A stretch of 64,000 bases of DNA from Candidatus Wildermuthbacteria bacterium (GTDB taxonomy: Bacteria; Patescibacteriota; Minisyncoccia; Minisyncoccales; UBA10102): NCBI GenBank assembly GCA_016181405.1, contig JACOZJ010000003.1, positions 176,126-240,125 on the forward strand, given 5' to 3'. The stretch's first letter is position 1, and every line of letters starts with the position of its first letter. The position numbers and the translations under genes are program-made. Shown one piece after another: positions 21,622-62,233 of this stretch. The notes under the pieces are model-generated. The model made no database searches. It was not told the origin of the DNA and saw only the letters and a program-made list of their open reading frames with translations.

Positions 21622-22259
21622 ATATCTACGAGAGGTTGAATTAATCTAATATTCTTGTGATATCGCATGCGCTTTGGGCCCACAATGGCCACAAAGCCGT
21701 TTTGCCCTTTCGCAAAGTCGCATTCGCACACTATCATACTAAAGTCCACAATCCTTGAAAAGGGATTCTCTCTTCCAATATATACTTGGAGCCGCTCCCC
21801 TTCGAGCGCCCGCTCGATGTTCTGCTCCACATCCAAAAGAAATTTCGTAAAGTTTCCCCGGAGTTCTGCGCGCGTAAATTCAGGTTCCTGCAGAAGATGC
21901 TCCCATCCTTCTTTCCAAAGAATATTCCGGTGATAGGCAAGAACCAAGTCAGAAAAGTCAGATTCATCCTCCACGTCTTCCTCGTCTAGCGCACGCTTTT
22001 CCAAGCTCTCATTTACGAAAAAACGGTATCCCCGGTCGGTTGGCACGCGGCCAGCAGACGTATGCGGCTGTTCTAAATACCCTCCCCTCGCAAGGGAAAA
22101 AAGCTCCGAGCGAATGGTTGCCGATGAGAAAGGTAACTCATAGCGCGATTCAAGCCATGAAGAACTTATGGGTTGGGCGCGATCGATATATTCGAAAATT
22201 GTCTTATACAGAATATCTTTCTGCCGCTCGGTGAGCACCATAATTCTTCTATTATACAC
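21597..22259 (-). CDS. hrcA: heat-inducible transcription repressor HrcA (short form, 220 aa)
   Basis: LTERQKDILYKTIFEYI wHTH N-terminus. First gene of hrcA-grpE-dnaK-dnaJ. A CIRCE element lies immediately upstream. Confidence 0.8.
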   Translation of the reverse strand: MYNRRIMVLTERQKDILYKTIFEYIDRAQPISSSWLESRYELPFSSATIRSELFSLARGGYLEQPHTSAGRVPTDRGYRFFVNESLEKRALDEEDVEDESDFSDLVLAYHRNILWKEGWEHLLQEPEFTRAELRGNFTKFLLDVEQNIERALEGERLQVYIGRENPFSRIVDFSMIVCECDFAKGQNGFVAIVGPKRMRYHKNIRLIQPLVDIWKKRLKR

Positions 22260-22268
22260 GCAAGGAAA

Positions 22269-22295
22269 TTAGCAGTCAACCCCCTAGACTGCTAA
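22269..22295. promoter_or_regulatory. CIRCE operator (TTAGCAGTC-N9-GACTGCTAA)
   Basis: Perfect 9-bp inverted repeat with 9-nt spacer 10 nt upstream of the hrcA start. Matches the CIRCE consensus TTAGCACTC-N9-GAGTGCTAA with a compensatory C/G swap in both arms. Confidence 0.85.
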
Positions 22296-43785: not shown

Positions 43786-44564
43786 GGGCGCAAAGAAGTA
43801 ATTACAAATACTGTTTCAAGGGATTTTAAACTAAAAAATGGCTTTACATTTGCCTTTTGAAAGGGATCGGAGCCAGCTTTCAAAATCTCTGTGATTTCGC
43901 CAATCAACAAATTTTTTGGGAACACGCCGCCCAAATTACTCGTAACCACCATATCTCCAACGCCGAGTTCATCTTCCTGCGGGACCAAGTCAAGCATAAG
44001 TTTCTGGCCGCCCTTTCCCCTTACCACGCCAGTCGTTTCTGTCTCCGCAATTTGCGCATCCGTTCTGGCCTCGTCGGCTGAAATCAACTGCACACGGGCA
44101 TGATCGGAGAACGACTCCACAACTTTCCCCACGGCAATGGTGCCGGAAGCAATAACCGACATTCCTTTTTGAATTCCCTGATTCTGTCCTCCCCGAATGG
44201 TAATAACATCTTCCCCAAGATTTTTCCCGATAACGTCAGCCATCACCATACGAAATTCTTCTGTAAGCCCCAAGTCCAGCATTCTGCGCAATTCTTCATT
44301 TTCTCTTTCTACGTCCTGCAAAGAGATAACCTTCTGCACCAGGGCAAAATTTTCCTGCCGTAAGATCTCGTTTTCTGTACGCAAACTGCCTCCACCAAAA
44401 AAAGTGGATATACTCCGCCCCGCTTGCCACAGAGAAGCCTGCAAAGGAGAAGATATAGATGTTGCGAATTCTCGCACTTGAGAAGAAATAAGATTTAAAG
44501 ACAAAAACGATAAAATCACCAAAAGCAACACGCCGAATCTTCTCCTTAAAATCAGATTCCTCAT
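43782..44564 (-). CDS. mreC: rod shape-determining protein MreC
   Basis: N-terminal TM, coiled-coil, C-terminal beta domain. Confidence 0.8.
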   Translation of the reverse strand: MRNLILRRRFGVLLLVILSFLSLNLISSQVREFATSISSPLQASLWQAGRSISTFFGGGSLRTENEILRQENFALVQKVISLQDVERENEELRRMLDLGLTEEFRMVMADVIGKNLGEDVITIRGGQNQGIQKGMSVIASGTIAVGKVVESFSDHARVQLISADEARTDAQIAETETTGVVRGKGGQKLMLDLVPQEDELGVGDMVVTSNLGGVFPKNLLIGEITEILKAGSDPFQKANVKPFFSLKSLETVFVITSLRP

Positions 44565-44613
44565 TGATCTATTATAAAAGCACCTCTGGGAATTTCAAGG
44601 GAAACAATTTACG

Positions 44614-44738
44614 AGATTGAATACAGAGATGGGGACTACCTACTCTCGCCTTGCGACTACCATCGGCCTTGAGGTATTTCACTTCCGTGTTCGGAATGGG
44701 AACGGGTGGGGCAACCTCAGTATAATCCCCATCTCTGG
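44614..44738 (-). rRNA. rrf: 5S ribosomal RNA
   Basis: Reverse complement reads CCAGAGATGGGGA...CCGAACACGGAAGTGAAA...TCCCCATCTCTG (helix I pairing, loop C motif). Confidence 0.9.
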
Positions 44739-44771
44739 ATTCAAAATTTTGAAGCAATCACTAATTGCCAG

Positions 44772-47535
<2,764 letters not shown>

Positions 47536-47731
47536 ATGCAATACCCTAGCTAGCAATTAGTAATTGCTTTGCTTCTATTCAGTTGTCAAAGTTCTCATGA
47601 GTAGTAGAAAAGCGTTTTTTTGTCAAACAAAAACCGCTTTTTCGAAGCGGTCTCCACACAGCAAAAAAGTGATGGTCTCTCAGCCGCTTCGTTTTTTGAC
47701 TATTAGTTGTTCTGTACTCATGTACGTATCC

Positions 47732-47760
47732 AGTATAGCCGACTCTCAAATCAATGTCAA
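47732..47760 (-). promoter_or_regulatory. rRNA promoter (TTGACA-N17-TATACT) with AT-rich UP element, copy A
   Basis: Consensus hexamers on the minus strand about 200 nt upstream of the 23S 5' end. Confidence 0.7.
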
Positions 47761-47813
47761 GGACAGCGAAAATCCCAATTTCCAAGCCCCAAATCCCGCC
47801 CTTTAGCGGTTGA

Positions 47814-48473
47814 TTAAAGCAGCTTTTGTTCAATAAAAGGCTTAAGGTCGGAAGCGACAAGGATACGCTGGATATCGCTGTGCGTAATCAGCGTTTGCGA
47901 CGGGCGAGTGTCATCGCCATTTTGACCGGCAATCGAAAAACCCACGTACTCAACTTTTTTCTTTTGACGAAGCCGTATCCAATCAATGGCCGGCACAAGA
48001 TCCCCATCGGAACTCACGATAATTGCGGTATCATATTTATCGTCTATCGCGCCCACGATTGCATCGGTGGCGAGCTTCACGTCAATGCCCTTTTCTCTCA
48101 TCCGCTCAAACTCTACTTCTTTTACCCCTTTTTTCAGCAATTCCTTGTAATTTTTGACCCTGTCATCAATAACGACTTTTTCTATTCGTGTGCGAAGCTT
48201 GCTCGTTTTGATCTCCCATCCACTTGAGCGCAATCGGGTAAATAAGGTGGTTTGCCGAGACATTGCCTGTTTGCTCCTTTTATCCCCTTCTCTTTCTCGT
48301 ACCGTGCCGACATAAAAACGTTTGCCGGCTTCGGTAATCGCCCGCCCATTCGCAAGGAATTCGGCGAATTTGTCGAACGCAAAATCAAGCTCTTGGATGC
48401 CTAATTTCCGTAAAACAAGGTGATGGAGATTCCCTCCGTCAATAAGTATCTGAACGCGTTCTGCCATACCCAT
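47814..48473 (-). CDS. NYN-domain (LabA/PIN-like) ribonuclease
   Basis: ERVQILIDGGNL...EKGIDVKLATDAI...AIIVSSDGDLVPAI acidic-residue pattern of NYN domains. Probable start MGMAERV; the longer ORF to 48599 would begin upstream of its own promoter. Confidence 0.7.
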   Translation of the reverse strand: MGMAERVQILIDGGNLHHLVLRKLGIQELDFAFDKFAEFLANGRAITEAGKRFYVGTVREREGDKRSKQAMSRQTTLFTRLRSSGWEIKTSKLRTRIEKVVIDDRVKNYKELLKKGVKEVEFERMREKGIDVKLATDAIVGAIDDKYDTAIIVSSDGDLVPAIDWIRLRQKKKVEYVGFSIAGQNGDDTRPSQTLITHSDIQRILVASDLKPFIEQKLL

Positions 48474-48545
48474 AGTATGCCATACGCGCGGGCAAAATAA
48501 AATCCTGCACACAGCCGAAGCTGGCGCAGGAGACTTTATGTATCT

Positions 48546-48574
48546 AGTATAGCCGACCCTCAAACCAATGTCAA
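48546..48574 (-). promoter_or_regulatory. duplicate of the rRNA promoter (TTGACA-N17-TATACT), copy B, driving the NYN gene
   Basis: About 60-bp near-identical repeat of 47731-47790, including -35, spacer, -10 and UP region. Confidence 0.65.
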
Positions 48575-48698
48575 GCGCAGCGAAAATCCCAATTTTCAAT
48601 GCTCAATTTTCAATCTCCGCCAAAGGCGGATCCGCCTCGGACGGAAAATCCCAATGCCTTAATGCTCAAAACAAAATCGTCTGGCCCATATCTCTATC

Positions 48699-49187
48699 TT
48701 AGCTAATACGAGGCCATTTAGTTAAAAGCTCTTGCTTAATACTTCTATATCTGTGAAAAATATTATCAAAATCTTGAATGATTGCTTCAAGCGCAGAGAC
48801 TTCGAGGGAAGGACTTTCTAGTAAACGATGCATAAGTTTATTTCTTTTCTTGTTAAATGCAGAAAGACACCTTATAAACTCCTCCCTATCAGGAAAATTA
48901 AACTCTTGAAGATCTGCGATCATTCCTCCGAGAGTTTTCTTCTTCATGCACTCAGAGATTGGCCAAGAAATTACTCCATTGAACTTCTCGTATGTCCCAA
49001 CTTTAATCATGCGGTGCAGATTTCTTAAGATATCACTTGCGACATATTCGACGTGATTCACAAGGAGTAAAATTGCGGTTAACTTCTCCTCACTCGTATC
49101 TCCACGAGCATATTCTCTTGCCTTCTTTAAGCTTTCATTCAGGAGATCGATATCTGTATGTCCGATCGGCTCAAAATCGCTGGGCAT
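48699..49187 (-). CDS. HEPN-motif protein (candidate RNase)
   Basis: All-alpha 162-aa protein with Rx4H motif in FNKKRNKLMHRLLE (R-N-x-x-x-H). Confidence 0.45.
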   Translation of the reverse strand: MPSDFEPIGHTDIDLLNESLKKAREYARGDTSEEKLTAILLLVNHVEYVASDILRNLHRMIKVGTYEKFNGVISWPISECMKKKTLGGMIADLQEFNFPDREEFIRCLSAFNKKRNKLMHRLLESPSLEVSALEAIIQDFDNIFHRYRSIKQELLTKWPRIS

Positions 49188-49212
49188 AAAATAAGTAATT
49201 ATTTACATTGGG

Positions 49213-51558
49213 TTATGGTTCAACCTCCAAATCACTTAACGACACAATCATTGGAAGTAGAGTTGGCGAAATCGCTCTGGAAAACATAGCTATTTTTTCG
49301 TATATTGAAACATCGTTATTTTTCTCCGGAGCTTCCCCTTTAAGTTTCTTGCTCTTGTTATCGAAATCAAGCAATGAGATACCGAGTAATACCATACCGT
49401 ATTTAAATCTTGCTTCTAAGAGTTTCGGTTCAATTTTTGAATTCTCCTTAATTTCCATTTGCAGGTAGACATTATCCATATTGATGTAGAAGTCATACCC
49501 TGCTTCTTCTCCTCCATCCACAACCTTCAATGCACTCTTCTCATCAAATTTATGTTTTTCCCACTCATTTCTTCGCACCTCATACGCATGAGGAATATCG
49601 AGGTAGATTGGTTTTTCCCTATCTTTTCCAGTATCTTTACCTGACGGTTTTTTTCTTTTTCCGTGCCCTCCATTTGTTTCCTGTTGTGGTTTATCCACCT
49701 CAATACAAAATTCACTCGAGAATGAATCAATCCTGGAAATATCTATAACTCCAGTTCGAAAACACAATTTGTTTCCGATTTCAGATTGCTGTGGTATTCC
49801 AATCGTCAGTGTCGCAAGACCATTCCACAGATTGAGTGAGTAATCTTCAATAGGAGATTCGTCTATTTCAAGCGTTAATTCTCCGGGATCTTTATCTCTC
49901 TTAAAATAATCATTTTCAGCGTCTGTCTCATATTGGATTCGGAACCGCCTATTTATGGGACAGTGCTTCGGTTCTTTAGAGGGATGCTGTTTGGACAATT
50001 TGAAGTAACTTGGAAATGTCTTACCCTTAAATTTTTCTTGTTCTCCTGCGCCAGTAAGTTTGAACGGGTTCTTAATCCTTACCCCTTGCATGAAGAGACT
50101 CGAAAGAGATGGGGATTTCTTGATTATATTTTCCAATACATCTGCCAGTGGCTTCGAATCTTGTAGCTTATGTTCTACTAACTCTCTTTTTCTCTTTTCC
50201 CTTAGCTCCCTGAGTCCTGGATGGTTTTTAATTATATCTTCCATCTTTCTTTCGATTTCGCTTTGAAGCGGTCCACCACCAAGGCGGTCTCGGCTGTTCA
50301 TAAATAAGTCTTCCTGCATCCTTCTATCAATTCTTGAACAATCTACGATCACTAAAATACTATCAGACAAATAGTTCATGCCAACTACCTTTCGTTCAAA
50401 GAAATATCTCGGTAGCGAACCGTGTGTCTGTCCATTGACAATAAAAATTATCCCCTCTTCTGTAGCATAAGTTTCTCTTTTTCCTACTTTAAAAGCATAT
50501 ATTGAATAGTCCATCCTTTGACCCTGAACAGTCATTTCTCCTGACCCAGGGAAACCATCTTCAAGATTTTCTCTCTTATCTTCATCTAACCTTACGCTTA
50601 ACCCCGAGAGTGTTTTTATGGGACTTTTTCTAAATCTAGTATCAGCAACCTTTATGGGTAGCGCAATCTCTGGCATTAAAAGGGAAAGTCTATTGTGCAA
50701 GTGGCGAGTAGCATCTGATCGCAAGCGCCCAGTACTCATTTGGTAATCGTAAATTTTTATAAAAGTTCCATGCTCAATAGATTTTTTATATGCATCAAGA
50801 TCGTCATTTGGCAGTAAGGGAAGTGTCTTAGAAGTGAAAGAAAGTATTTCCCCTGCGGGAGCAAGATAAGTAAATACAGAGCTTCGCATTTGGCCAGTTG
50901 GCGGAATCCGTCTGATTATTGTCATTCCCCATAGATCTTTTTCCGTTTTATTTTTAATTTCTCGATTTCTTCTTGAAACTATTAATTGTAAATTATGCTC
51001 TGGGCTTCCGAACCTAAAAACTCCTGTCCCGCCCATACCAAACTTACCTTGAACAAATTGAATCTTGCTTTTATTCCCTCTGTTTAGAGAAAGAAAGGTA
51101 TCAAGAAAACGTTCGGGTGATTGACCCTCTCCTAAATCAACAAGCGAATAGGAAGGGCTAGCTTTGCTTCCACTTGCAACAAGAAAAATATTTTCAGCTA
51201 AGTTAGATCTCGCACTCGCGTCAATGCTAGAAAGCTTGCCGTCATAAATTCCAAAGTACTCTTTTTGCGCTTCCGCAATACTCTTGGGAGCTTCTTGGCT
51301 TGTTGGTTCTATGCCTCGCGATAAGCATTCTTTCATCAACATTGCATCTACGGAATTGATGATCTTCTCAACAAGTGCTGTATCGGGGGCACTTTGTTGA
51401 TTCCCAATTGTTGACCAGTTCCCTGAACTCTCATCAACTTCTTTCCACACTTTCTTGTCTGACCATAAGCCCGATTTGCTCAGGATTTCCACAACGGTCT
51501 TTTCTGTTTCTGCCTGTATCAGCGCAAGTGCCAATTTTTTGATCTCTTCATTATTCAT
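49213..51558 (-). CDS. GHKL-superfamily (Bergerat-fold, MORC/Hsp90-like) ATPase, 781 aa, large uncharacterised C-terminal region
   Basis: N-box EKIINSVDA. G1 box VDLGEGQ (DxGxG). G2 box GKFGMGGTGVF (compare Hsp90/MORC GQFGVGFYS). Confidence 0.55.
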   Translation of the reverse strand: MNNEEIKKLALALIQAETEKTVVEILSKSGLWSDKKVWKEVDESSGNWSTIGNQQSAPDTALVEKIINSVDAMLMKECLSRGIEPTSQEAPKSIAEAQKEYFGIYDGKLSSIDASARSNLAENIFLVASGSKASPSYSLVDLGEGQSPERFLDTFLSLNRGNKSKIQFVQGKFGMGGTGVFRFGSPEHNLQLIVSRRNREIKNKTEKDLWGMTIIRRIPPTGQMRSSVFTYLAPAGEILSFTSKTLPLLPNDDLDAYKKSIEHGTFIKIYDYQMSTGRLRSDATRHLHNRLSLLMPEIALPIKVADTRFRKSPIKTLSGLSVRLDEDKRENLEDGFPGSGEMTVQGQRMDYSIYAFKVGKRETYATEEGIIFIVNGQTHGSLPRYFFERKVVGMNYLSDSILVIVDCSRIDRRMQEDLFMNSRDRLGGGPLQSEIERKMEDIIKNHPGLRELREKRKRELVEHKLQDSKPLADVLENIIKKSPSLSSLFMQGVRIKNPFKLTGAGEQEKFKGKTFPSYFKLSKQHPSKEPKHCPINRRFRIQYETDAENDYFKRDKDPGELTLEIDESPIEDYSLNLWNGLATLTIGIPQQSEIGNKLCFRTGVIDISRIDSFSSEFCIEVDKPQQETNGGHGKRKKPSGKDTGKDREKPIYLDIPHAYEVRRNEWEKHKFDEKSALKVVDGGEEAGYDFYINMDNVYLQMEIKENSKIEPKLLEARFKYGMVLLGISLLDFDNKSKKLKGEAPEKNNDVSIYEKIAMFSRAISPTLLPMIVSLSDLEVEP

Positions 51559-51562
51559 AAGT

Positions 51563-51793
51563 TTAGAACGTAAATTTTGATTTCTTAGGTAGATGAAACC
51601 TTATCTTTGCTTCTCGGGTTCCGCGTTCAATTTCAGAAAATATCTTATTCACCTCTTCTTCGCTGTATTCATAAGCGCCTCGATTGCCACAGTTTCCCAA
51701 AACCCGCAATCGCTCCAACACTTGATTGGTGCGAAGCGCAGCAAGCCTTTTAAAACGTTCTTGCTTGGTTTCATTTTTAGGAGAAGTTCTCAT
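51563..51793 (-). CDS. small basic protein, first gene of the GHKL module
   Basis: 76 aa. Stop lies 4 nt from the GHKL start. Confidence 0.45.
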   Translation of the reverse strand: MRTSPKNETKQERFKRLAALRTNQVLERLRVLGNCGNRGAYEYSEEEVNKIFSEIERGTREAKIRFHLPKKSKFTF

Positions 51794-51974
51794 ATTTTTT
51801 GTATTTATGCTTTTATTTAGCCTTATACTCCAGTATTATCATGTCCTGAAAATAATGTCAATATCCTTACAAACTACATCAATACCTTATACATTTTAAG
51901 TACAAAAACTGCAGGGCAAAGTCAGTGGTAAAAAAGGGTCGGGGCATTTTTTGCCTCGACCTTGAACGGCTGTC

Positions 51975-52343
51975 TCAATTCCGCTGGGAATTTTCTCCTT
52001 GCTGTCTCACCTCCCGCAAGCTTCGCGCGAACTCTCCCGCGCCATCGCTGATGATGCGCGATGCCTCCTTTGGCACTACGGTATCTATCTTGCAATTCGT
52101 ACATCGTATGGCGACAAGGAGAGGGAATTCATCATCCTTCCATAGCGCATCTGAATTTTTCACAAGGTAGTGACCGTCCTTTATGAATCCCACCGTCACT
52201 ACGGCGTGAATTTTCCCTCCGCAGGATCCTGTCGGGCAGGCGCCGATAAAATCTGCGAGGATGCGCTCACGGCCACGATCTTTCTCAACCCAAAATACCA
52301 TAGTGAAGATAGTCCATATGTGCATGTGCATGCCCACCCCCAC
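51975..52343 (-). CDS. hypothetical Cys-containing protein (GC-rich)
   Basis: CPTGSC ... CTNC pairs. Start codon uncertain. Confidence 0.35.
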   Translation of the reverse strand: MGVGMHMHIWTIFTMVFWVEKDRGRERILADFIGACPTGSCGGKIHAVVTVGFIKDGHYLVKNSDALWKDDEFPLLVAIRCTNCKIDTVVPKEASRIISDGAGEFARSLREVRQQGENSQRN

Positions 52344-52437
52344 TTAACAAATTGCATTCCCGCGGTTTGCTTTCCATACCACAAAAATTGAAATATGTGA
52401 ATATGCTTAAAGCAAAAAAGACAAAACCTATGAGGTA

Positions 52438-52465
52438 TTGACATTTTCCTGGGCTACGCTAAAAT
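52438..52465 (+). promoter_or_regulatory. consensus sigma70 promoter TTGACA-N16-TAAAAT
   Basis: Both hexamers near-consensus. No annotated gene downstream on the plus strand. Confidence 0.7.
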
Positions 52466-52599
52466 ATGACCTAGTTCTTATGTGGAGAGGTCGAGTTTTT
52501 CCCTGGAAGCTGCACGAAAGTGGAGCTGCGAGGGGAGGGCTCGAGAGGATTCTCTAGAAGAAATCCTAAACCAAACTCGAGCCCGACAAAGGAGGTCCC

Positions 52600-52707
52600 A
52601 TGGTTGGACCGCCCACGACCACGGAAAGGAATAGCTCGCTGAACTTCATTGACGACGTGGACGCCATCGCAGGCCCGCCGGCCCCCGACCACACCAACAC
52701 GACCTGA
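52600..52707 (+). CDS. 35-codon ORF behind a perfect Shine-Dalgarno (MVGPPTTTERNSSLNFIDDVDAIAGPPAPDHTNTT)
   Basis: AAAGGAGGT 6 nt upstream of ATG. Sits in a roughly 60% GC transcript. Confidence 0.3.
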   Translation: MVGPPTTTERNSSLNFIDDVDAIAGPPAPDHTNTT

Positions 52708-52744
52708 CGCCGGCCGCGGCCCGGGTGGACCTAGGCCACCAAGG

Positions 52745-52806
52745 GCGGGGGCGCTTGCTGCAGCAAGCGCCCCCGCAACTCTACTCACAGCTCAAACTGT
52801 GTTTTT
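52745..52806 (+). terminator. 14-bp-stem hairpin (GCGGGGGCGCTTGC/GCAAGCGCCCCCGC) followed by T6
   Basis: Perfect stem. T-run lies 20 nt downstream, so it is a weak intrinsic terminator for the plus-strand transcript. Confidence 0.4.
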
Positions 52807-52823
52807 TATTTGTGCCAAACAAA

Positions 52824-52848
52824 CCCCCCCGCCGATGAGGCGGGGGGG
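52824..52848 (-). terminator. rho-independent terminator of the 52878-53573 gene
   Basis: CCCCCCCGCC-GATGA-GGCGGGGGGG hairpin followed by TTTGTTTGG on the minus strand. Confidence 0.7.
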
Positions 52849-52877
52849 GACGATAAATTCACCTGTTCTGGTTTTCT

Positions 52878-53573
52878 CTATCTTTGCATTTTATTGCGCA
52901 GGTCTCTCAAGATTTCAGCTGCCTGATCCTTCCCTCCCAAACCAAAGGCAATGGCAACTGCCAAAGCAATTCCATATCCAATACCCTGTACAAATGTCTG
53001 AATAAGAACCTGCACCGGAAGCACGGCAATATCGAGCTGGAGCAGAGCGGAGAAAAGCGCGAAAATCCAGATAAACCATTTCACTACCGAACCGATAAAC
53101 TGGCCATGTCCTATCTTAGCTCCCTCCACTGAAGCCCTTACTACTTTCTCCACAATGTCCGCCACAATGATTGCCACGACAAGGATTAAAGCCGCCACAA
53201 TCACGTTTGGCAAATAGGCCAACACGTCGCGCAGGAATCCGGCAAACTGCTCAAAACCAAGAATTTCTACCGCAGCAAGCAGAAAGACAATAACAAGCAC
53301 CCACTTGAAAATCGCTCCGATAAAGCCAGCAGGATCAACCTTCAAATCCGCTTTTGCCAACGCTTCTTTCCAGTTGCCGCGCTCAAACACTTGGTTAAAT
53401 TTAATGCGCGTTAAAAGATCTGCCACAAGCCTACCTACCCCCACAGCAATAAACCAGCCGACCAGCAAAACGAGAATAGCAAAAATCAAAAGAGGCACGA
53501 ATGAAACCACTCCTGACAACAAATCACGAAACGCATCGCTTAACGCACTACTTGTAATTTGTACCAAATTCAT
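52878..53573 (-). CDS. membrane protein with conserved TM-helix repeats (MscS-associated type)
   Basis: 231 aa with repeated hydrophobic helices and charged linkers. Confidence 0.4.
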   Translation of the reverse strand: MNLVQITSSALSDAFRDLLSGVVSFVPLLIFAILVLLVGWFIAVGVGRLVADLLTRIKFNQVFERGNWKEALAKADLKVDPAGFIGAIFKWVLVIVFLLAAVEILGFEQFAGFLRDVLAYLPNVIVAALILVVAIIVADIVEKVVRASVEGAKIGHGQFIGSVVKWFIWIFALFSALLQLDIAVLPVQVLIQTFVQGIGYGIALAVAIAFGLGGKDQAAEILRDLRNKMQR

Positions 53574-53685
53574 AAGTATAAACGTATGCTTTAAAATTCG
53601 ACCTTTCCCTTTATCTTATCTACTTTTATAATACCACTGCCTGAAAGTCAGCAAAACACCCCCTGTGGAAAACTTTAGGGTCTCT

Positions 53686-54039
53686 TTATGAAGTCTTATG
53701 CTCCGCACTAATCTGCCAATTGGCGGGTCCAGTGCGGGATCTGCGTATTAAAAGCGCCTTTCCTAAAATAATCTCACGAGGTATCCAGCCAAAACTTCTG
53801 CTGTCTGAACTTCCCTCTTTATTCAAGCCTTCTACCCAATACCAAGAATGGTATTCGTCAGTTTTTTCTTTGGTAATGTATTTCAGTATCAAGCGATCTT
53901 CCTGCGGATGGCGCAGCACCACCATATCCCCTACTTTTGGCCGAAACACAAAGTAGGACAACCGATCGAGTAGAACAAAATCCCCCTCTTTGCATAAGGG
54001 CTCCATGCTCCGCCCTTTTACCCTAAAATACGCAAACAT
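53686..54039 (-). CDS. sodX: S26-family signal-peptidase-like NiSOD maturation protease
   Basis: KGRSMEPLCKEGDFVL and SSDSRSFGW (Ser/Lys dyad region). AAGGAGG SD before Met at 54039. Confidence 0.7.
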   Translation of the reverse strand: MFAYFRVKGRSMEPLCKEGDFVLLDRLSYFVFRPKVGDMVVLRHPQEDRLILKYITKEKTDEYHSWYWVEGLNKEGSSDSRSFGWIPREIILGKALLIRRSRTGPANWQISAEHKTS

Positions 54040-54079
54040 TTTTTTGAGGCCTCCTTTTCGAAAGGTAAGGCTCACCAAA

Positions 54080-54520
54080 CTACTGCTGCGCGGCCGCCTT
54101 CTGGAACATCTGAGCAATTTCCTCTACCGCCCGTATAAGTTCTTGCGCGGCTTCCCTACTTACTTCCTGCTTGTTCTTGGAACACAACTTTGCTGCCTTC
54201 CAGAACGTCTCATGCAGTGTTGGAAACATCTCTAAGTGTTGTGGTTTAAAATAATCTGTCCATAGGACAAGAAGCTCTTTTTTGCAAATTTGCGCGTGTT
54301 CTTCTTTCACCTGCACCATACGGACAAAAGAGTTTCTTGTGTTCAAAGTTGGGGGCATGTCTTGTGGAAGAGCCTCGATTTTCTCAACCATCTTTGCCAC
54401 AGTATGCGCAGCCGTGAGAGCGGGTTCCGGCGTGTAAATCCCACAGGGAATGTCGCAATGCGCATACAGCTCTCTTGCAGGATGAATCTTGTGAATAAGC
54501 GCGAAAAGTTTGTACAACAT
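54080..54520 (-). CDS. sodN: nickel-containing superoxide dismutase precursor
   Basis: 20-aa leader followed by the Ni-hook HCDIPCGIY. Confidence 0.85.
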   Translation of the reverse strand: MLYKLFALIHKIHPARELYAHCDIPCGIYTPEPALTAAHTVAKMVEKIEALPQDMPPTLNTRNSFVRMVQVKEEHAQICKKELLVLWTDYFKPQHLEMFPTLHETFWKAAKLCSKNKQEVSREAAQELIRAVEEIAQMFQKAAAQQ

Positions 54521-54618
54521 ATTGTTGTAGTATACCCCTATAATATCCGTGAAGCAATAAGGTATTCGTCCTAGAAAATACCTCTAATCCTCCGGCATTG
54601 CCATTACCAGTGAGTTAA

Positions 54619-55362
54619 ATGGCGTGCTATTATAGAGTTGACATGACCAAGAAACAAACGGTTATCTACCAGACGCGCCTACACCTTGTACTGACGATTC
54701 TTCTTATCACCATCCCTTTTGTCTTTTTGCTCTTTTTTGCCTGGATTGCCAATATACCCACAGCCAAACTCTTCTCCGCAGTTTTTATATCGTTTGTAAG
54801 GCTACTTGCAGCCTATACCATAGCAGTAGTGCTTGCCTGGATGCTGGCAGTAGGTTTCTACCAGGGCAAGCGGGCGGCAATCGCTTTGCCGATTTTTGAT
54901 GTTTTACAAAGTTTCCCTACGTTCGCTATATTGCCGCTCGCAGCCTATATTTGGGGACCGTCAAACATCACAGTTATTTTCTTTTTAATCATTACCGTAA
55001 TCTGGCCGATACTTTTTTCAATCATAAGCTCACTAAAGCTAGCCAAGAAAGATTGGGAAGAAGCGGCACAGATTATGGGGCTTAGGGGTAAAACTTATCT
55101 CCGTAATTTTCTATTGCCGCTAAGCATACCCGGGCTCGTTACCGGTTCTATCATAGGCTTAGGTGAAGGATGGGAAGCGCTCGTGGCCACAGAAATTATT
55201 GCGGGTAATCCCGACGGCTTAGGAAGTTTCTTTAAAGCGCATTCTCAAAACGTTATGATTACGTCCTTAGGAGTGTTTGGCCTGCTTCTATTGATATTTA
55301 TTATCAACAAACTTCTATGGCTCCCGCTTCTTGAACGAACCCATAATAACATGGAAGAATAA
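54619..55362 (+). CDS. ABC transporter permease (NitT/TauT-like)
   Basis: Six TM helices with EAA-type loop. Confidence 0.8.
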   Translation: MACYYRVDMTKKQTVIYQTRLHLVLTILLITIPFVFLLFFAWIANIPTAKLFSAVFISFVRLLAAYTIAVVLAWMLAVGFYQGKRAAIALPIFDVLQSFPTFAILPLAAYIWGPSNITVIFFLIITVIWPILFSIISSLKLAKKDWEEAAQIMGLRGKTYLRNFLLPLSIPGLVTGSIIGLGEGWEALVATEIIAGNPDGLGSFFKAHSQNVMITSLGVFGLLLLIFIINKLLWLPLLERTHNNMEE

Positions 55363-56110
55363 CGACATGAATAAAGTCGCATTATCGCTTTCTCACGTTA
55401 ATAAAGTATTCAAAACGGACGGCCAAAAAACAGTTTCGGTGATCCACGATGTAAGTCTCGATATTTTAAGCGGTGAAATATTCGTTTTCGTTGGCCCGTC
55501 AGGTTCCGGCAAATCTACTTTACTGCGTATTATGAGCGGCATTGAAAAGTCATTTACGGGAGAGGTCAAACGTTCAAAAGACGTAAGCCCGCATGACATG
55601 AGTTTTGTGTTTCAACAGTTCGCCATTATGCCGTGGTTAACGGTTTTTGAAAATGTTGAGCTGGCCCTTATAGCCCGGGGTGTTAAACAAGGAGAGAGAG
55701 GACATACGGTTATGAGAGAGCTTAAGCAACTGGGATTAGAGAAGTCCAAAGATTCTTACCCGAGAGATTTATCGGGCGGCATGCGCCAGCGGGTTGGGAT
55801 AGCAAGAGCGCTTGTCACGAACCCTAAAATTATTTTTATGGATGAGCCATTTTCTGAGCTCGATTCATTTACCGCAGCGTCTTTAAGAAAAGAACTTTTA
55901 GATATATGGCAGGAACGCCGACCTACAATTGTAATGGTCACTCACGTGGTTGAAGAAGCGCTTGAATTAGCCGACAAGATCGCGGTGCTTACTCCTCGTC
56001 CAGCGCGCGTTGAAAAAGTTGTAGTAGATAATCTGCCAAGGCCGAGGGACACGCGCTCAAAAAATTTCTATCAATTAGAAGACGAACTCTACCAACTTAT
56101 TAAACCCTAA
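55331..56110 (+). CDS. ABC transporter ATP-binding protein
   Basis: Walker A GPSGSGKST. Signature LSGGMRQR. Walker B IIFMDEPFS. Confidence 0.9.
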   Translation: MNEPIITWKNNDMNKVALSLSHVNKVFKTDGQKTVSVIHDVSLDILSGEIFVFVGPSGSGKSTLLRIMSGIEKSFTGEVKRSKDVSPHDMSFVFQQFAIMPWLTVFENVELALIARGVKQGERGHTVMRELKQLGLEKSKDSYPRDLSGGMRQRVGIARALVTNPKIIFMDEPFSELDSFTAASLRKELLDIWQERRPTIVMVTHVVEEALELADKIAVLTPRPARVEKVVVDNLPRPRDTRSKNFYQLEDELYQLIKP

Positions 56111-56164
56111 AACGAACATACCAAAAACGACCGCCTCTCTGCTGCATCCGACCCGTATGTATGT

Positions 56165-56347
56165 TTAGACGGCTGACTCTTTACCCGATTCATCTCCTTC
56201 TTGTTCTTTCACCTCGCTATGCATGCCGTCTTCGCAATGACATTCCTTTAAAGGCGTCCCATAATCGGGGCACCCTCCTGTGTGGCAAGCTCCCGGAGTT
56301 TCAGAAACTCCCCCGCATCCGCCTGTGCATATATAATGTGTTCCCAT
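56165..56347 (-). CDS. Cys/His-rich small protein, putative metal-binding
   Basis: YICTGGCGGVSETPGACHTGGCPDYG...ECHCEDGMH. Confidence 0.45.
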   Translation of the reverse strand: MGTHYICTGGCGGVSETPGACHTGGCPDYGTPLKECHCEDGMHSEVKEQEGDESGKESAV

Positions 56348-56467
56348 ATATTGTTATTTGATACGTTTTCTTTTTTTCGACTTTAATTTATTGTACTATA
56401 CCCTGCCAAAAACAAAAACGGGATGGATGCGATTCGTTCGTTGGCGAATGCAACACCCATCCCCTTT

Positions 56468-56719
56468 CTACTCAAATTTGTCTATTTCGGGGCGAGCAAA
56501 CCCCACATAGTATGTGCCTTGATAACAACACCCTTCGCGAGTGCATGTCATGACAAAGAGGTTGCTATCACTTGGACCTCCGCGGTACTCCATGGACGCG
56601 CCGCACTGCGGGCACTTTATTCCGGGAATTTCTGGCATTGTCTTTCCCTTCGTCCGCCGTCCTCTGGCTAAACCGTTGTTTTCGAAACTCACATTTTCTT
56701 CAGACGCCGGACGCCCCAA
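56468..56719 (-). CDS. zinc-ribbon small protein
   Basis: CPQCG...CTREGCC. Confidence 0.4.
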   Translation of the reverse strand: MGRPASEENVSFENNGLARGRRTKGKTMPEIPGIKCPQCGASMEYRGGPSDSNLFVMTCTREGCCYQGTYYVGFARPEIDKFE

Positions 56720-56898
56720 ATGGTAACGAGGATGTTGAGTGCGAAAACCAAAAAAACGGCAACAAGGATTATCGGGCGCGCTTGTTCTTTGCGAAGAAGG
56801 CCCATCATCGCCATGATGAAAACCGAACCAAAGAACCAGATGGCCACGAGTTTCAACCCGATTTCTCGTCTTGCTGCATTCTTTTCCGGCTCAGTCAT
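56689..56898 (-). CDS. small two-TM membrane protein
   Basis: 69 aa. Confidence 0.4.
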   Translation of the reverse strand: MTEPEKNAARREIGLKLVAIWFFGSVFIMAMMGLLRKEQARPIILVAVFLVFALNILVTIWGVRRLKKM

Positions 56899-56949
56899 CT
56901 GACTCCTCCCTAATTCAGCCAGATCTCGTCTAGCTGTTCTACCGCTACC

Positions 56950-56985
56950 TTATTGAAAACGCTCCAAAAAGTCAAACAAAAAAAG
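56950..56985 (-). promoter_or_regulatory. promoter cassette (T-rich UP, TTGAC-N17-TAGGGT) preceded by a terminator hairpin; paralog of 58265-58302
   Basis: 32-bp identity TATTGAAAACGCTCCAAAAAGTCAAACAAAAA in both copies. Confidence 0.4.
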
Positions 56986-57047
56986 GAGCTCCAGTCTATG
57001 ACTGGAGCTCGTGGAAAGAACCATTGAAGAAGCTTGCGCCCCTTCGG

Positions 57048-58205
57048 CTACCGAATGTTGAGCGTAGCCTCCGAGTATTCGATACCCTTCGGCACTATGA
57101 CAACTTTCCGCGTGTCGCTTTGCTCGATGCGTCCTGCCCATACAGCACCAAAGCGATTGGGATACTCATAACGCTCAAGCACATCCCAAACCGTGCGCAC
57201 ATCATCTTGCGACACGTAGAGAGCGAAGCCAGCTCCCATGTTGAAGTTACCATACGCCTCCCGGTCATCCACTGGACCGTGCTTCTGCAGAAAGTCGAAG
57301 ATCGGGAGTTGCGTAGGCAAGTTCTCAATGATGTAGGCAAACGGCTGCTTCGCTCGCATAAGCTTGCGCCAGCCGTGTCCCGTGATGTTCACCACGTAGT
57401 GGATATCTGCACCGCGATTGAGACAATCCTCAACCACTGGAACGTAGATGGGCGTTGGATCAAGCAGTGTCTCGCCATATGTTCGCCCATCGTCGAGCCG
57501 TGTGAGATAGCCATCAGGCAACTTGTCGGCGATCTTCCGAGCCATTGTCAGCCCATTTGCATGAATACCGGAACTCTCAATGAGGATGATCACATCACCG
57601 TGCCGAATCTTGTCTGCCGCAATGAGTCGCTCTTTCGGCTTCACAAGACCCATCGCGGAGCCGGAAAGCACTACTGCTCCAGGTACGATAACGTCTTTGA
57701 GTGTGGGCGTCTCACCACCACCCCAGACGCACCGCGCGAGATTGCAGGCCTTCTTCCAGCCCTCGACGAGATCACGGCACCGTTGGTCATCGCTAAACCA
57801 ATTTGAGTCGCCAACGGCGAGGTGCATGGCCACTGAAAGCGGCAACGCGCCAAGCGTAATCATGTCGTTCACGATCATCGCCACAGTATCTTGCGCGATT
57901 TGACCGTAGTACGATCTCGTGCCAGTAAGCTCAACTGCGGCAGCAATTCGCAGAAGTTCGCGAAATGCATCAGCGACTAGGTTCTTTGTGCCCAAACCTT
58001 CTTCGACGTGGCCGAGATATGCATCTCCGATATCGATGAGATAACAGCTTTCACCGCGGCTCGATTCCACTTCAGAAAATCCAAAGCGGGCTAGATTGGC
58101 TGCAGTTTCGCGCCCCGCGATTTGCGCCATGCGTTTGAATGGATCCATCGCGTCGTAGTCGACGCCAACTCCCCGATAGGTCATCCCTTGGTTATCCTGT
58201 GACAT
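57048..58205 (-). CDS. purM: AIR-synthase-related (PurM-like) protein, GC-rich
   Basis: GVGVDYDAM, GLGTKNL, VNDMITLGALPL, GGETP, TGHGWRK and NMGAGFALYV align with PurM blocks. Confidence 0.65.
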   Translation of the reverse strand: MSQDNQGMTYRGVGVDYDAMDPFKRMAQIAGRETAANLARFGFSEVESSRGESCYLIDIGDAYLGHVEEGLGTKNLVADAFRELLRIAAAVELTGTRSYYGQIAQDTVAMIVNDMITLGALPLSVAMHLAVGDSNWFSDDQRCRDLVEGWKKACNLARCVWGGGETPTLKDVIVPGAVVLSGSAMGLVKPKERLIAADKIRHGDVIILIESSGIHANGLTMARKIADKLPDGYLTRLDDGRTYGETLLDPTPIYVPVVEDCLNRGADIHYVVNITGHGWRKLMRAKQPFAYIIENLPTQLPIFDFLQKHGPVDDREAYGNFNMGAGFALYVSQDDVRTVWDVLERYEYPNRFGAVWAGRIEQSDTRKVVIVPKGIEYSEATLNIR

Positions 58206-58264
58206 TCCCGCTCCTTCCTCGTTGCAGACTTACTCGCTAAACGGAATTCCTCAACCTTCTAAAG

Positions 58265-58302
58265 CTACCCTATTGAAAACGCTCCAAAAAGTCAAACAAA
58301 AA
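58265..58302 (-). promoter_or_regulatory. promoter cassette, second copy, upstream of the purM-like gene
   Basis: Same 32-bp element, flanked by terminator hairpin AACCCGAAGGGATATTCGGGTTTTTT. Confidence 0.4.
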
Positions 58303-58345
58303 GAAAAACCAAAAACCCGAAGGGATATTCGGGTTTTTTGATGTT

Positions 58346-60157
58346 TTAGACCAAATCGGAGCGTTTTGCTTTGGCGCGATCAAGTTTTGTGAGGTATTGC
58401 TTTCGAAGGCGCACGCTTTTGGGAGTAATTTCAAGATACTCGTCATCTCCCATAATTTCCAACCCGTCTTCTATAGTTAAAAGTTTCGGGGGAGTGAGCA
58501 AGATATTTTCGTCGGAAGCCGCGGCCCGCATGTTGGTAAGGTGTTTTCCTTTTGTGGGGTTTACCGCCATCTCAACCCCTTTTGAAGTGTTCCCAACTAC
58601 CATGCCTTCATATACCTGCATGCCGGGCGCAATATACAACACTCCCCGATCCTGGAGATTATACAAAGAGTACCCAAGCGCTTTTCCTGTAGCAATAGAA
58701 GCCATAGACCCAACTTGCCGTTTTGAGATTTCCCCAGCGTACGGCTCAAATCCAACCACTCTGCTGGCAAATATTCCCTCCCCTCTTGTATCAACAATAA
58801 ATTGCCCGCGATATCCCAAAATTCCCCGTGTCGGCCCCTTCAAAAGCATGCGCACCGTAGTCCCATGCTGCTTGATATCAAGCAGCCGAGCTCCACGCTG
58901 GCTCAATTTTTCAATAACAACTCCCTGGAATTCCACCGGAACATCAATAGTTATTTCTTCGAATGGCTCTGTTTTTACGCCGTTTATTTCCTTGATGATT
59001 ACATGGGGCTGGGAAACCTGAAGCTCATGCCCTTCCCGGCGCATATTTTCCAGTAAAATCGCAATATGCAATTCCCCTCTTCCGTATACTCTGAATTTGT
59101 CTTGCTCTGAAAAATCAATATGCAGCCCTACGTTTACCTCAAGCTCTTTTTCGAGCCGCTCTCGAAGCTGCCTTGAAGTAACGAATTTCCCTTCGCGCCC
59201 TGCAAAAGGCGAATCGTTTACCAAAAAGTTAAGAGCAATGGTCGGCTCATCTATTAAGATGGCAGGAAGTGTTTCCTGGTCCGCAGAAGCGCAAATAGTA
59301 TCGCCAATATAAATATCGGGAATCCCCGCAATCATGACAATATCTCCAGCCGACGCTTCTGTAGCCTCTTCTCTTACCAATCCATTGAACGTAAACAATC
59401 TTGTAATTTTCCCGCTATATGTTTCCTTGTCTTTGTGCTTTATATACACGGTGCTTCCTGTTTTTAAAACTCCTTCGTATATTCTTGCTATTGCAAGGCG
59501 GCCCAGGAAATTATCGTATGCAAGATTAAATGGCTGGGCGCGCAGTGGCATATCTTCTTTCCCGGAAGCCAAAGGAACTTCTTTTAAAACCGTATCGAGC
59601 AGCGGAGATAAATCTTTCGATTCATCTTCTACGTTGTATTTTGCGATTCCTTCGCGGCCAATAGCATACAAAGTGGTAAAGTTGAGCTGATCATCATTTG
59701 CGCCCAAATCCAAAAATAATTCATACACCTGCTCTTTTGCGAGTTCAGGGTTTGCCGCGGGCTTATCTATTTTGTTGAGAACCACAATGGGCTTTAACCC
59801 CAATTCCAAAGACTTTTTCAGCACGAATCTTGTTTGGGGCATAGGGCCTTCTTGCGCATCAACCACCAGCACCACAGAATCAATTGAACGCAACACGCGC
59901 TCCACTTCAGACCCGAAATCGGCGTGCCCCGGCGTGTCTACAATATTGATTTTTGTGGGTACTTGCCCTGAGCTTACCGAAGGGTAAAGGACAGAGGCAT
60001 TTTTTGAATAAATCGTAATACCGCGCTCCTGTTCGAGTGCGTTTGTATCCATGCTCATGCCTTCTTGGAAGGCGCCGGTTTGGCGCAAAATGGCATCGGT
60101 AAGCGTGGTTTTCCCATGGTCCACATGGGCGATAATTGCGATGTTTCGGATTTCCAT
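58346..60157 (-). CDS. typA: translational GTPase TypA/BipA
   Basis: [11 protein letters not shown]1 motif, [13 protein letters not shown]. 603 aa. Confidence 0.95.
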
Positions 60158-60283
60158 AAAAAAATCCCGCAGTCCCCTCTTTGCGAGATTCTTTATACTG
60201 TACCAGAAAACTTACTTGGTGTCAAAAAGAAAGAGCCGGACTCCGCAATTGCTTGCAGAGCCCAGCCAGACACAAAGAGCTGA

Positions 60284-60655
60284 TCACGGAAGCTCGAGCC
60301 CCACAACCTCGGCGGGGTCGAGCTTGTCGCCGTTCTTCGGAAAAAGCACAATCATCTCCCCGGAGACGGCAGAACTGAGACGGACTCGCCTGCCGCCCTT
60401 ACTGCCCGCACTGATTTCACTCACCGAGAAGAGCATGAGGCCCGTCGTGTAGTCGAGGGGGTCTTCCTTGACCCACCGCTTCGGGACCGGAGGGAACCCC
60501 TCTCCCTTGGCGCGCCAGACAAACTTGATCCGAATCCTGCCGTCCTCGACGACGATGGTCTTCACCTCGCCCCGAGAAAGGTACCCCCTCCTCTCGTTTT
60601 GGATTTCCGCCTGCCCACCCACGAACCGCTCGAGCATCTCCGTTGTAAGCTCCAT
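60284..60655 (-). CDS. hypothetical protein (GC-rich)
   Basis: 123-aa ORF. Confidence 0.35.
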   Translation of the reverse strand: MELTTEMLERFVGGQAEIQNERRGYLSRGEVKTIVVEDGRIRIKFVWRAKGEGFPPVPKRWVKEDPLDYTTGLMLFSVSEISAGSKGGRRVRLSSAVSGEMIVLFPKNGDKLDPAEVVGLELP

Positions 60656-60808
60656 TATTCCTCCTCCTGCAGGGTAAGCAAATTCAACCCCCTGCTGCTG
60701 AATAATGCTCTAGCACACTAAATTATAAAAGTCAAGATTTTGGATTTGACGAAAATAGAGTTTTCTGGTATTAAAATCAATAAGACCAAACGGGGGTAGG
60801 AGGAAGCC

Positions 60809-61378
60809 ATGGGGAAAATCTTTGGATTCCTGATCAGCATCGATACAAAGATTGATAGGGTTATAGCTCCTCTTGTCCGGTTCTGGACAGAGTGGACAGG
60901 GATGTCCAACTTTGCTCTTTCCAAGGTTTTGCTAGGACTCGCAGTCTGCGTGCTAGCACTGCGAGGAATTCTGCTTGCAATCTCTACATCTCCGCTCGAG
61001 GGGGGCATCTACTTTCTGTTGTGTCTATCTCTGCCCGGTTGGCGGCTTCTCCAATTAAAGCAAGCAGAAACAGCAGTAAACCAAGAAAGCGCTTCGGATA
61101 CTCTCTCTGCAAAAGCGCATGCCCTAAGAGAGCAGATGCGTATTGTGCGATCGGTTTTCGTACCTATGTTCCTGTACTTCCTGCTCCTCCTGTTGTCGGA
61201 CTCCATCACGCTGAGAAAGATTTCCAGTTCATTCTTCTTGTTGCTCATCCTCCTGGAGTTATATGTGACATATGAGTACACCCCAAGAGGAGGAAGCAAA
61301 ATCAAAAAGCTGCTCAAGCAGTTGGCAGCACTTCCACGCAGCATCAAGTTCCCAAGGCCAGTTCCTTTTCCAACCTAA
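60809..61378 (+). CDS. membrane protein of unknown function
   Basis: 189 aa with four predicted TM helices. Confidence 0.45.
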   Translation: MGKIFGFLISIDTKIDRVIAPLVRFWTEWTGMSNFALSKVLLGLAVCVLALRGILLAISTSPLEGGIYFLLCLSLPGWRLLQLKQAETAVNQESASDTLSAKAHALREQMRIVRSVFVPMFLYFLLLLLSDSITLRKISSSFFLLLILLELYVTYEYTPRGGSKIKKLLKQLAALPRSIKFPRPVPFPT

Positions 61379-61573
61379 TAGCAGGGTCTCAAGCCCTCGC
61401 CGAAACCAAGCCGCTTCCCTTCGGGAAGCGGTTCTTCTTTTTATATTTTACGAGGATCAAAATTGAAATAGAAATCTAAAACCTCAACAACTCCGTTGCG
61501 AGTCCGTTCAATAATCGCCGAAACCACAGGAATATTTATTTCTGGTTTATTTTCCATAAATTATTTCAAAACT

Positions 61574-62035
61574 TCACAGCTTTACTTCTATCCTCGAATC
61601 AACATAGTTGCCTTTTATCCTGTCATCTCCATTTATCCAAAACTTTTCCGGCACTGCTTTGTATACGCGCCGGGGGTAATTGCCCAAAAACTCTTCTGCC
61701 TTCCTCAAAGTTTTGTTTTTGCGGCCGTAAAGATATGTAAGAGCATGTTCAACCTCTTTGGGGTCGTCTAGCTCGTACGCTTTCGCCTTCACATACACGC
61801 CTTCACCAGTTCCTTCAGGCACGGTAGAGTCATAGATTGCCAAGAAAACGTCACTGGTATTGCGAATATTCTTTGAGTGCTCATTTTCTTTCCACGAAAC
61901 CCAAAAGAAATTAAACTTTTCATCGTACGCAGAATAAACGGGCGAATTCCATGGCTTGCCTTCCTTCGAAACGGTCGCAACCGTAATATAGAGAATTTTT
62001 TCGATTATTGCTTTTGCTTTTTCTTCATTGGTCAT
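61574..62035 (-). CDS. pyridoxamine 5'-phosphate oxidase-like FMN-binding split-barrel protein
   Basis: 153 aa. LYITVATVSKEGKPWNSPV pattern. Confidence 0.6.
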   Translation of the reverse strand: MTNEEKAKAIIEKILYITVATVSKEGKPWNSPVYSAYDEKFNFFWVSWKENEHSKNIRNTSDVFLAIYDSTVPEGTGEGVYVKAKAYELDDPKEVEHALTYLYGRKNKTLRKAEEFLGNYPRRVYKAVPEKFWINGDDRIKGNYVDSRIEVKL

Positions 62036-62069
62036 ATTTTCTGTAGATTACTTCAATCTACCGCACCCC

Positions 62070-62100
62070 CGCGTTCTGTCAACAAAAAAACGCCCCTGAT
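62070..62100 (-). promoter_or_regulatory. promoter TTGACA-N16-TAGATT with T-rich UP
   Basis: Immediately upstream of the 61574-62035 gene. Paralogous copy at 63819-63850. Confidence 0.5.
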
Positions 62101-62160
62101 GGAAAGAGTTTACCCTGAGCTCCTCGAGTCTGAGCCTCGGAGTCGAAGACTTGTCGAAGG

Positions 62161-62233
62161 GTGGACCCGAGCGGGATCGGACCGCTGATCTCCTCATTGC
62201 AAATGAGGCGTTCTACCACTGAACTACGGGCCC
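62161..62233 (-). tRNA. tRNA-Ala (anticodon TGC)
   Basis: GGGCCCGTAGTTCAGTGGTAGAAC...anticodon loop TTTGCAA...G3:U70 identity pair. Own TTGTAT-N17-TGgTATAAT promoter at 62245-62275. Confidence 0.88.

Follow-up and report, generated by a model that had tools for sequence, protein, structure and literature searches.

Setting within the split rRNA operon

The window (the whole 64-kb stretch of DNA that was analysed, with a GC content of 0.466) bears the locus tags HYT49_02575 to HYT49_02590 and was assigned by exact protein matches to a 263,996-bp contig in a MAG of Candidatus Wildermuthbacteria (CPR/Parcubacteria). According to Rfam searches of the whole window, the minus strand carries the 23S and 5S rRNA at 44627-47546; two tRNAs were found as well. 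In CPR relatives, tblastn and Rfam applied to the individual loci reveal the gene order 16S, tRNAs, Ni-SOD, S26 peptidase, MscS-like gene, variable spacer, 23S, 5S, p260 and p648. The rRNA operon of this CPR clade is split, both in the window (44627-62233) and in the loci L005, L006, L009, L011, L052 and L066, with genes for a Ni-superoxide dismutase, its maturation peptidase (S26-type) and an MscS-like membrane protein lying between the 16S/tRNA part and the 23S rRNA. The hypervariable spacer directly before the 23S rRNA measures 0.4-5 kb in relatives as compared with 5.3 kb in the window, and the GC-rich unit described here forms the edge of this 5.3-kb variable insert.

Apart from the GC-rich unit, the insert contains an NYN gene, a gene for a 162-aa HEPN-like protein (a weak match), a 781-aa GHKL-type ATPase with its 76-aa partner, and a 118-aa protein with four cysteines. 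The unit is flanked by HYT49_02585 and HYT49_02590, and the NCBI annotation is empty in between, in line with the original prediction that the plus strand carries no conventional gene here. The MscS-like gene (52878-53573, minus strand) is convergent with the unit.

The 76-aa protein and the 781-aa ATPase (49213-51793, minus strand) constitute a conserved two-gene module with more than 3000 relatives in CPR, Marinimicrobia, Hydrogenedentes and other groups. The contexts of these relatives are varied, some including toxin-antitoxin and nuclease genes; among the ATPase homologues listed, only two have a PF13589 record. The module matches no PADLOC model and may represent an undescribed defence-type system; it is widespread elsewhere without the GC-rich unit.

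The 118-aa protein (P0001; 51975-52331, minus strand) is ORFan-like in a word-based search, yet it has 10 remote homologues with a conserved four-cysteine motif (C32, C37-G-G, C77-T-N-C80). Its AlphaFold model is confident (pLDDT 90.6) and displays a beta-sheet with a long C-terminal helix, for which Foldseek returned no PDB match. The GC-rich unit is absent from both contexts of P0001 homologues that are long enough to judge (L091 and L092), L093 being too short at 607 nt. A near-consensus promoter on the minus strand (TTGACA-N17-TATACT) is part of a 70-nt direct repeat whose copies, at 47723-47792 and 48537-48606, are 86% identical. One of them stands before the 23S rRNA, the other before the NYN-domain gene, which looks like a duplication of the rRNA promoter region around an inserted gene.

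Promoter, hairpins and reading frame of the unit

The unit opens with a sigma-70-type promoter on the plus strand, TTGACA (52438-52443) and TAAAAT (52460-52465) separated by a 16-nt spacer, exactly as originally predicted and with an 11/12 match to the consensus. Transcription is predicted to start at about 52472-52474. Matches of at least 11/12 occur seven times on the two strands of the 64 kb, compared with 1.4 expected from block shuffles (a 5-fold enrichment), and at least three of the other sites stand directly upstream of the 23S rRNA (47760-47732) or of ORF starts. This consensus is therefore plausibly used in the organism, and the site at 52438-52465 is probably a real promoter. On the minus strand of 52344-52870 no promoter was found at a match of 9/12 or better. 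Near-consensus promoters at 44571-44598 and 22251-22279 (both minus strand) stop some 7 nt short of annotated start codons (ATG or GTG; for the former it is the ATG at 44564, 7 nt away); together with the lack of a Shine-Dalgarno (SD) sequence in most genes, this suggests that leaderless or SD-independent initiation is frequent.

Strong GC enrichment, likewise part of the original prediction, is evident against the window mean: the GC content is 0.59 over 52472-52811, 0.64 over 52497-52780 and 0.69 over 52600-52780, and the peak of 0.76 over 100 nt is the highest anywhere in the window. The predicted 127-nt leader (z -2.5) contains two hairpins. The first one, H1 (52499-52536), closes with a GAAA tetraloop, includes a U-G pair and reaches -22.2 kcal/mol (z -4.6) on the plus strand as compared with -14.3 kcal/mol on the minus strand; this gap of about 8 kcal/mol is the only clear strand signal. 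The second one, H2 (52537-52584), consists of a perfect 9-bp outer stem (GGGCUCGAG/CUCGAGCCC; 52537-52545 with 52576-52584) around a 6-bp inner stem, at -21.7 kcal/mol and z -5.3.

An SD sequence, AAAGGAGGT (AAAGGAGGU), follows at 52588-52596, with its core AAAGGAGG ending 4 nt before the AUG. The hairpin that could mask it is marginal (-10.4 kcal/mol, z -1.1, not significant), leaving the SD weakly masked. The sequence AAGGAGGT has a single plus-strand occurrence in the window, which is the SD of the unit. AGGAGG followed by a start codon (NTG) after 3-9 nt is found in three plus-strand and eight minus-strand cases in the 64 kb, and an SD-like motif lies near the start of about 6 of the 39 long genes of the window, a genome that seldom uses SD sequences. 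Given this rarity, the combination of SD and AUG in the unit is unlikely to have arisen by chance.

The 35-codon ORF anticipated behind this SD, MVGPPTTTERNSSLNFIDDVDAIAGPPAPDHTNTT, occupies 52600-52707 with its ATG at 52600. Its predicted peptide is acidic, hydrophilic, Pro/Thr-rich and of low complexity, has neither cysteine nor a hydrophobic segment, and would release the tryptic peptides MVGPPTTTER and NSSLNFIDDVDAIAGPPAPDHTNTT. The GC content at the three codon positions is 0.53 (GC1), 0.56 (GC2) and 0.81 (GC3), as compared with a GC3 of 0.34-0.59 in typical genes of the window. GC periodicity of period three is significant over 52600-52780 (permutation p of about 0.0004) and marginal within the ORF itself (p 0.036); the signal runs about 70 nt beyond the stop codon, and a minus-strand frame fits it about equally (GC3 0.76). 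These single-sequence proxies for a small protein-coding gene (SD, GC3, period-3 GC and low structure) are all positive but weak, and come from one representative.

In the trailer (52708-52811, z -4.5), two short GC-rich palindromic hairpins (52709-52744; GCCG/CGGC and GGUGG/CCACC) are followed by a perfect 32-nt palindrome (52745-52776). The latter folds into the 14-bp G/C-rich stem of the original prediction, with a 4-nt UGCA loop, -33.5 kcal/mol and z -5.9; its stability is the same on the two strands, and neither side has a U-tract. At 52786-52807 on the plus strand, a 5-bp hairpin (CACAG/CUGUG, -4.9 kcal/mol) leads into UUUUUU, and the unit most likely ends at this terminator-like hairpin with its T6 tract, which gives a predicted RNA of about 335 nt. 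The hexamers and spacing of a sigma-70 promoter, and the hairpin and U-tract of an intrinsic terminator, are accordingly both present in the sequence. The 10-bp G/C stem at 52824-52848, initially counted among the hairpins of the unit, belongs instead to the MscS-like gene on the minus strand and lies outside the plus-strand unit. We interpret it as the intrinsic terminator of that gene because its U-tract (UUUGUUU in the RNA, TTTGTTT in the DNA) exists on the minus strand only and the stem is conserved behind the orthologous gene in the relatives L004 and L006.

Logan contigs from three SRA runs (loci L001-L003, L084 and L085) stop inside the palindrome at 52745-52776, from both sides, so that the palindrome is bridged by the MAG assembly only. 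We considered an assembly chimera and attribute the contig stops probably to the palindrome breaking short-k de Bruijn graphs, not to a misjoin.

Over its whole length, the unit folds with a z of -4.7 on the plus and -4.4 on the minus strand. Two other GC-rich segments of 340 nt in the window, both coding, yield +0.8 and -0.6, which argues that the folding excess is not an artefact of GC content. The z value weakens to -1.9 once the 14-bp hairpin and the terminator are removed. For the 145-nt segment from the AUG it is +1.5, as 194 of 200 shuffles reach or exceed the stability of the native fold. Three or four local hairpins account for the whole thermodynamic excess. A structured RNA of roughly 330 nt, as originally proposed, is consequently supported for the two ends and contradicted for the ORF segment. 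In the minimum free energy fold, the 5' GUGGAG pairs with the 3' CUCUAC, with a G-U at the third pair.

Known families and relatives

Rfam 15 was applied to the whole window at gathering thresholds, to 52250-53000 (751 nt, lax filters) at E<=10, and to 51500-52500 at E<=1. At gathering or E<=10 the unit falls into no known family, and only spurious hairpin look-alikes were returned, among them a Streptomyces sRNA hairpin. Riboswitches, ribozymes, introns, OLE/GOLLD/ROOL/HEARO and other families all stayed far below threshold, the best scores being 14-23 bits where 37-230 are required. This agrees with the earlier failure to place the RNA among RNase P, tmRNA, SRP and 6S RNAs: neither the bacterial RNase P models (RF00010/RF00011) nor those of SRP RNA and 6S RNA matched at these thresholds, ARAGORN detected no tmRNA in the window, and no Rfam tmRNA model matched. 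The GUGGAG/CUCUAC pairing was also considered as a tRNA-like acceptor stem; the 14-bp hairpin takes the place of the T-arm, and no model supports a tmRNA.

Several other classes were rejected on the arrangement of the locus. A cis-regulatory leader, riboswitch or leader peptide is at odds with the next gene (52878-53573) being convergent, with terminators in between. The RiPP precursor or leader-like peptide of the original prediction finds no support: maturation genes are not recognisable among the scanned neighbours (the four-cysteine small protein, the GHKL-ATPase module, NYN, MscS-like, and NiSOD and its peptidase), the peptide has no cysteine and no plus-strand gene lies downstream. A type I toxin-antitoxin system was set aside on the acidic, hydrophilic peptide and the lack of a minus-strand promoter of at least 9/12 in 52344-52870. 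A repeat or mobile element (REP, MITE, DGR TR/VR, retron) was dismissed as well: the window contains no second copy of the unit and no tandem repeats, and neither a reverse transcriptase nor a transposase is present among the scanned neighbours.

The search for relatives was based on 80 loci from GTDB species genomes, all of them CPR, that carry relatives of the adjacent MscS-like protein at a best identity of 78-85%. When the unit was run against these loci with nhmmer and blastn, the hits were limited to Logan contigs of the same strain and to the neighbouring gene's terminator in L004. The closest relatives, with a 78-85% identical MscS-like gene, lack the unit and show no GC island behind that gene. 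With this, the idea of a conserved functional element, which the original prediction had tied to conservation of the structure or ORF in related genomes, fails. Pattern scans of JGI metagenome contigs and IMG/VR with six patterns of an antisense 105-aa ORF and five of the plus frame confirmed nothing; blastn against phage and plasmid collections gave only chance matches of 29-32 nt, and tblastn of the peptide against phages gave nothing. The 45-aa extended frame shares no word candidates with a database of 5.8 billion proteins, none of seven regional ORFs is on record by exact look-up, and PHROGs and Pfam yielded nothing for the small ORFs of the region.

The sequence of the unit is identical in three SRA runs. 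The organism, which stems from a groundwater site, is present in SRR12113430, SRR12113420 and SRR12113383. Going by these sequence comparisons, the unit is an orphan of one population, with one representative in the collections searched. With no homologue of peptide or DNA in the collections searched, purifying selection on the unit is not in evidence.

A possible small foreign mRNA and its alternatives

Our preferred explanation, held tentatively and with somewhat less than even confidence, is that the unit is a strain-specific, self-contained transcription unit from a higher-GC source, most likely a small mRNA. Transcription would proceed from the near-consensus sigma-70 promoter at about 52472-52474, and the 127-nt leader could fold into H1, with its GAAA loop, and H2, protecting the 5' end. 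The strong and largely accessible SD would then direct ribosomes to the AUG of the 35-codon ORF within an unstructured, C/A-rich segment, while the trailer of GC hairpins (the 14-bp stem and the short hairpin with U6) may provide the end and the stabilisation of the transcript. The anatomy of an orphan transcription unit outlined in the original prediction thus holds in silico, from promoter and leader hairpins through the SD-led ORF to the terminator-like end. Among the identities offered for it, a horizontally acquired small-protein gene fits best, considering the GC3 of 0.81, an SD in an SD-poor genome and the unstructured ORF segment.

The observations in favour of a small mRNA are of several kinds. 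The promoter matches at 11/12 and is of a class enriched 5-fold in the window; the structure is distributed as in an mRNA, with negative z in leader (-2.5) and trailer (-4.5) and positive z in the ORF (+1.5), next to +0.8 and -0.6 in the coding controls; and the stability of H1 favours the plus strand by 8 kcal/mol. SD and AUG are unlikely to coincide by chance, the GC3 is similar to that of the gene at 60284-60655 (0.79), and period-3 GC is evident over 52600-52780 (p of about 0.0004). The position in the variable spacer is consistent with an acquisition, as relatives possess the MscS-like gene, 0.4-5 kb of spacer and the 23S rRNA without the unit. However, neither peptide nor DNA has a homologue in the collections searched, and the peptide itself, short and of low complexity, shows nothing recognisable. 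The periodicity, moreover, is marginal within the ORF (p 0.036) and continues some 70 nt past the stop, the minus-strand frame fits about as well (GC3 0.76), and the plus-strand terminator hairpin is weak at -4.9 kcal/mol.

This continuation through the stop codon is what would be expected of a truncated ORF, and it brings in an inert relic of imported high-GC DNA, in which the beginning of a foreign gene, SD included, and some terminator palindromes came to rest in a hypervariable island, where they may be transcribed from a fortuitous or borrowed promoter but have no function. We consider such a relic somewhat unlikely. It would account for the confinement to one lineage (identical in three SRA runs, absent from relatives and from the collections searched), for a GC content far from that of the host, and for the location at the edge of a 5.3-kb insert of defence-type and orphan genes. 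The near-consensus promoter, however, is of a class used by this genome, the intact order of SD, AUG, ORF, hairpin and U-tract exceeds what decay would leave, and the ORF segment is depleted in structure. The same unstructured centre is read differently if the unit is a lineage-specific non-coding or dual-function sRNA, whose hairpins frame a single-stranded, C/A-rich stretch (52616-52705) for base-pairing or protein binding, the SD-like AAAGGAGGU and the ORF being incidental or secondary. In trans-acting sRNAs, an unstructured centre is flanked by hairpins, and the unit resembles this layout; promoter and terminator-like end without a same-strand gene downstream, the GNRA loop and strand asymmetry of H1, the very stable and non-random H1, H2 and 14-bp stem (z -4.6 to -5.9 each), and the whole-unit z of -4.7 against about 0 in GC-rich controls all count in its favour. 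Two papers (PMC6429828, PMC8632094) describe GC-rich long intergenic regions as enriched in ncRNAs, which also speaks for an sRNA. We nevertheless regard it as rather unlikely: Rfam assigns no family even at E<=10, the minus strand folds equally well overall, z is only -1.9 without the 14-bp palindrome and the terminator, the unit has no homologues, and SD, AUG and high GC3 are left unexplained. The outcomes of the survey of 4714 GC-rich long intergenic regions are also mostly ORFs (2948), unnamed (427) or low-ranking (607), with a few dozen strong RNA candidates, and by its criteria our locus, with fewer than five representatives, would be 'unnamed' or 'low-ranking' (PMC11109978). Of the structured ncRNA suggested originally, there remain the stable local hairpins at the ends, to which Rfam adds nothing.

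A housekeeping RNA so divergent that covariance models miss it (RNase P RNA, tmRNA, SRP RNA or 6S RNA) would have the size and the GC excess of the unit, RNase P RNA and tmRNA being typically of this length (about 335 nt) and richer in GC than their genome; it would also fit the GUGGAG/CUCUAC pairing and the adjoining rRNA genes. We find this explanation very improbable. No model of the four families reports the 751-nt region at E<=10 even with permissive filters, ARAGORN sees no tmRNA, and where a T-arm should stand, ahead of the 3' strand, there is a 14-bp hairpin. The middle third of the unit is unstructured, nothing like the unit occupies the corresponding position in the closest relatives, and a location in a variable insert without detectable sequence homologues is unlike that of an essential RNA. 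A new lineage-restricted regulatory or structural RNA, in which the hairpins and the C/A-rich single strand are the functional parts, is improbable too, if less so; its partner could be, for example, the neighbouring island of defence-type genes (GHKL-ATPase module, NYN, HEPN-like) or the four-cysteine protein.

Whether small mRNA or sRNA, the unit has counterparts among known systems. Its predicted transcript resembles dual-function sRNAs that encode a small peptide, such as SgrS/SgrT, SR1/SR1P and RNAIII/hld, in being some hundreds of nucleotides long and in combining stable stem-loops and a single-stranded stretch with a short ORF behind an SD; the likeness is one of layout, the unit being without sequence or structural homology to them. 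With type I toxin mRNAs of the hok, fst and tisB type it would share the form of a small, highly structured mRNA with possible pairing of its 5' and 3' ends and a hairpin containing SD and AUG. In contrast to these, the predicted peptide is acidic, hydrophilic and free of a transmembrane segment, there is no sign of an antisense promoter or RNA, and the SD hairpin is not significantly stable. Terminator hairpins without a U-tract have been described for high-GC bacteria, and the perfect 14-bp G/C stem, 37 nt after the stop and without an adjacent U-tract, is reminiscent of them, although the host is a CPR bacterium of 47% GC. In genomic setting the unit is like the sORF or small-protein genes of GC-rich intergenic regions that surveys have set up as a category (PMC11109978, PMC8632094): it too is an unannotated, GC-rich and long intergenic region with putative promoter and terminator, SD, start and stop, and without a downstream gene to regulate. 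Its single representative is too little to place it in that category. Judged from sequence, it is a single-representative orphan of small-ORF or sRNA-like type in a variable island, and as such of a familiar kind. It also recalls that an island of high GC between genes turns out more often to be a small or overlooked ORF than a new RNA of the ribozyme class. If expressed, it would illustrate how very small foreign genes or RNAs are taken up and retained by ultra-small CPR genomes in the variable spacer of a split rRNA operon, and it would be an additional, unannotated locus for a small protein or sRNA in a lineage with almost nothing known on small transcripts.

The window contains a second GC-rich orphan gene, at 60284-60655 on the minus strand, which encodes 123 aa and matches neither Pfam nor PHROG. 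Its GC content of 0.61-0.65, its GC3 of 0.79 and its strong SD (AGGAGGAGG) parallel the features of the 35-codon ORF, and this shared compositional signature suggests that both may derive from the same kind of donor.
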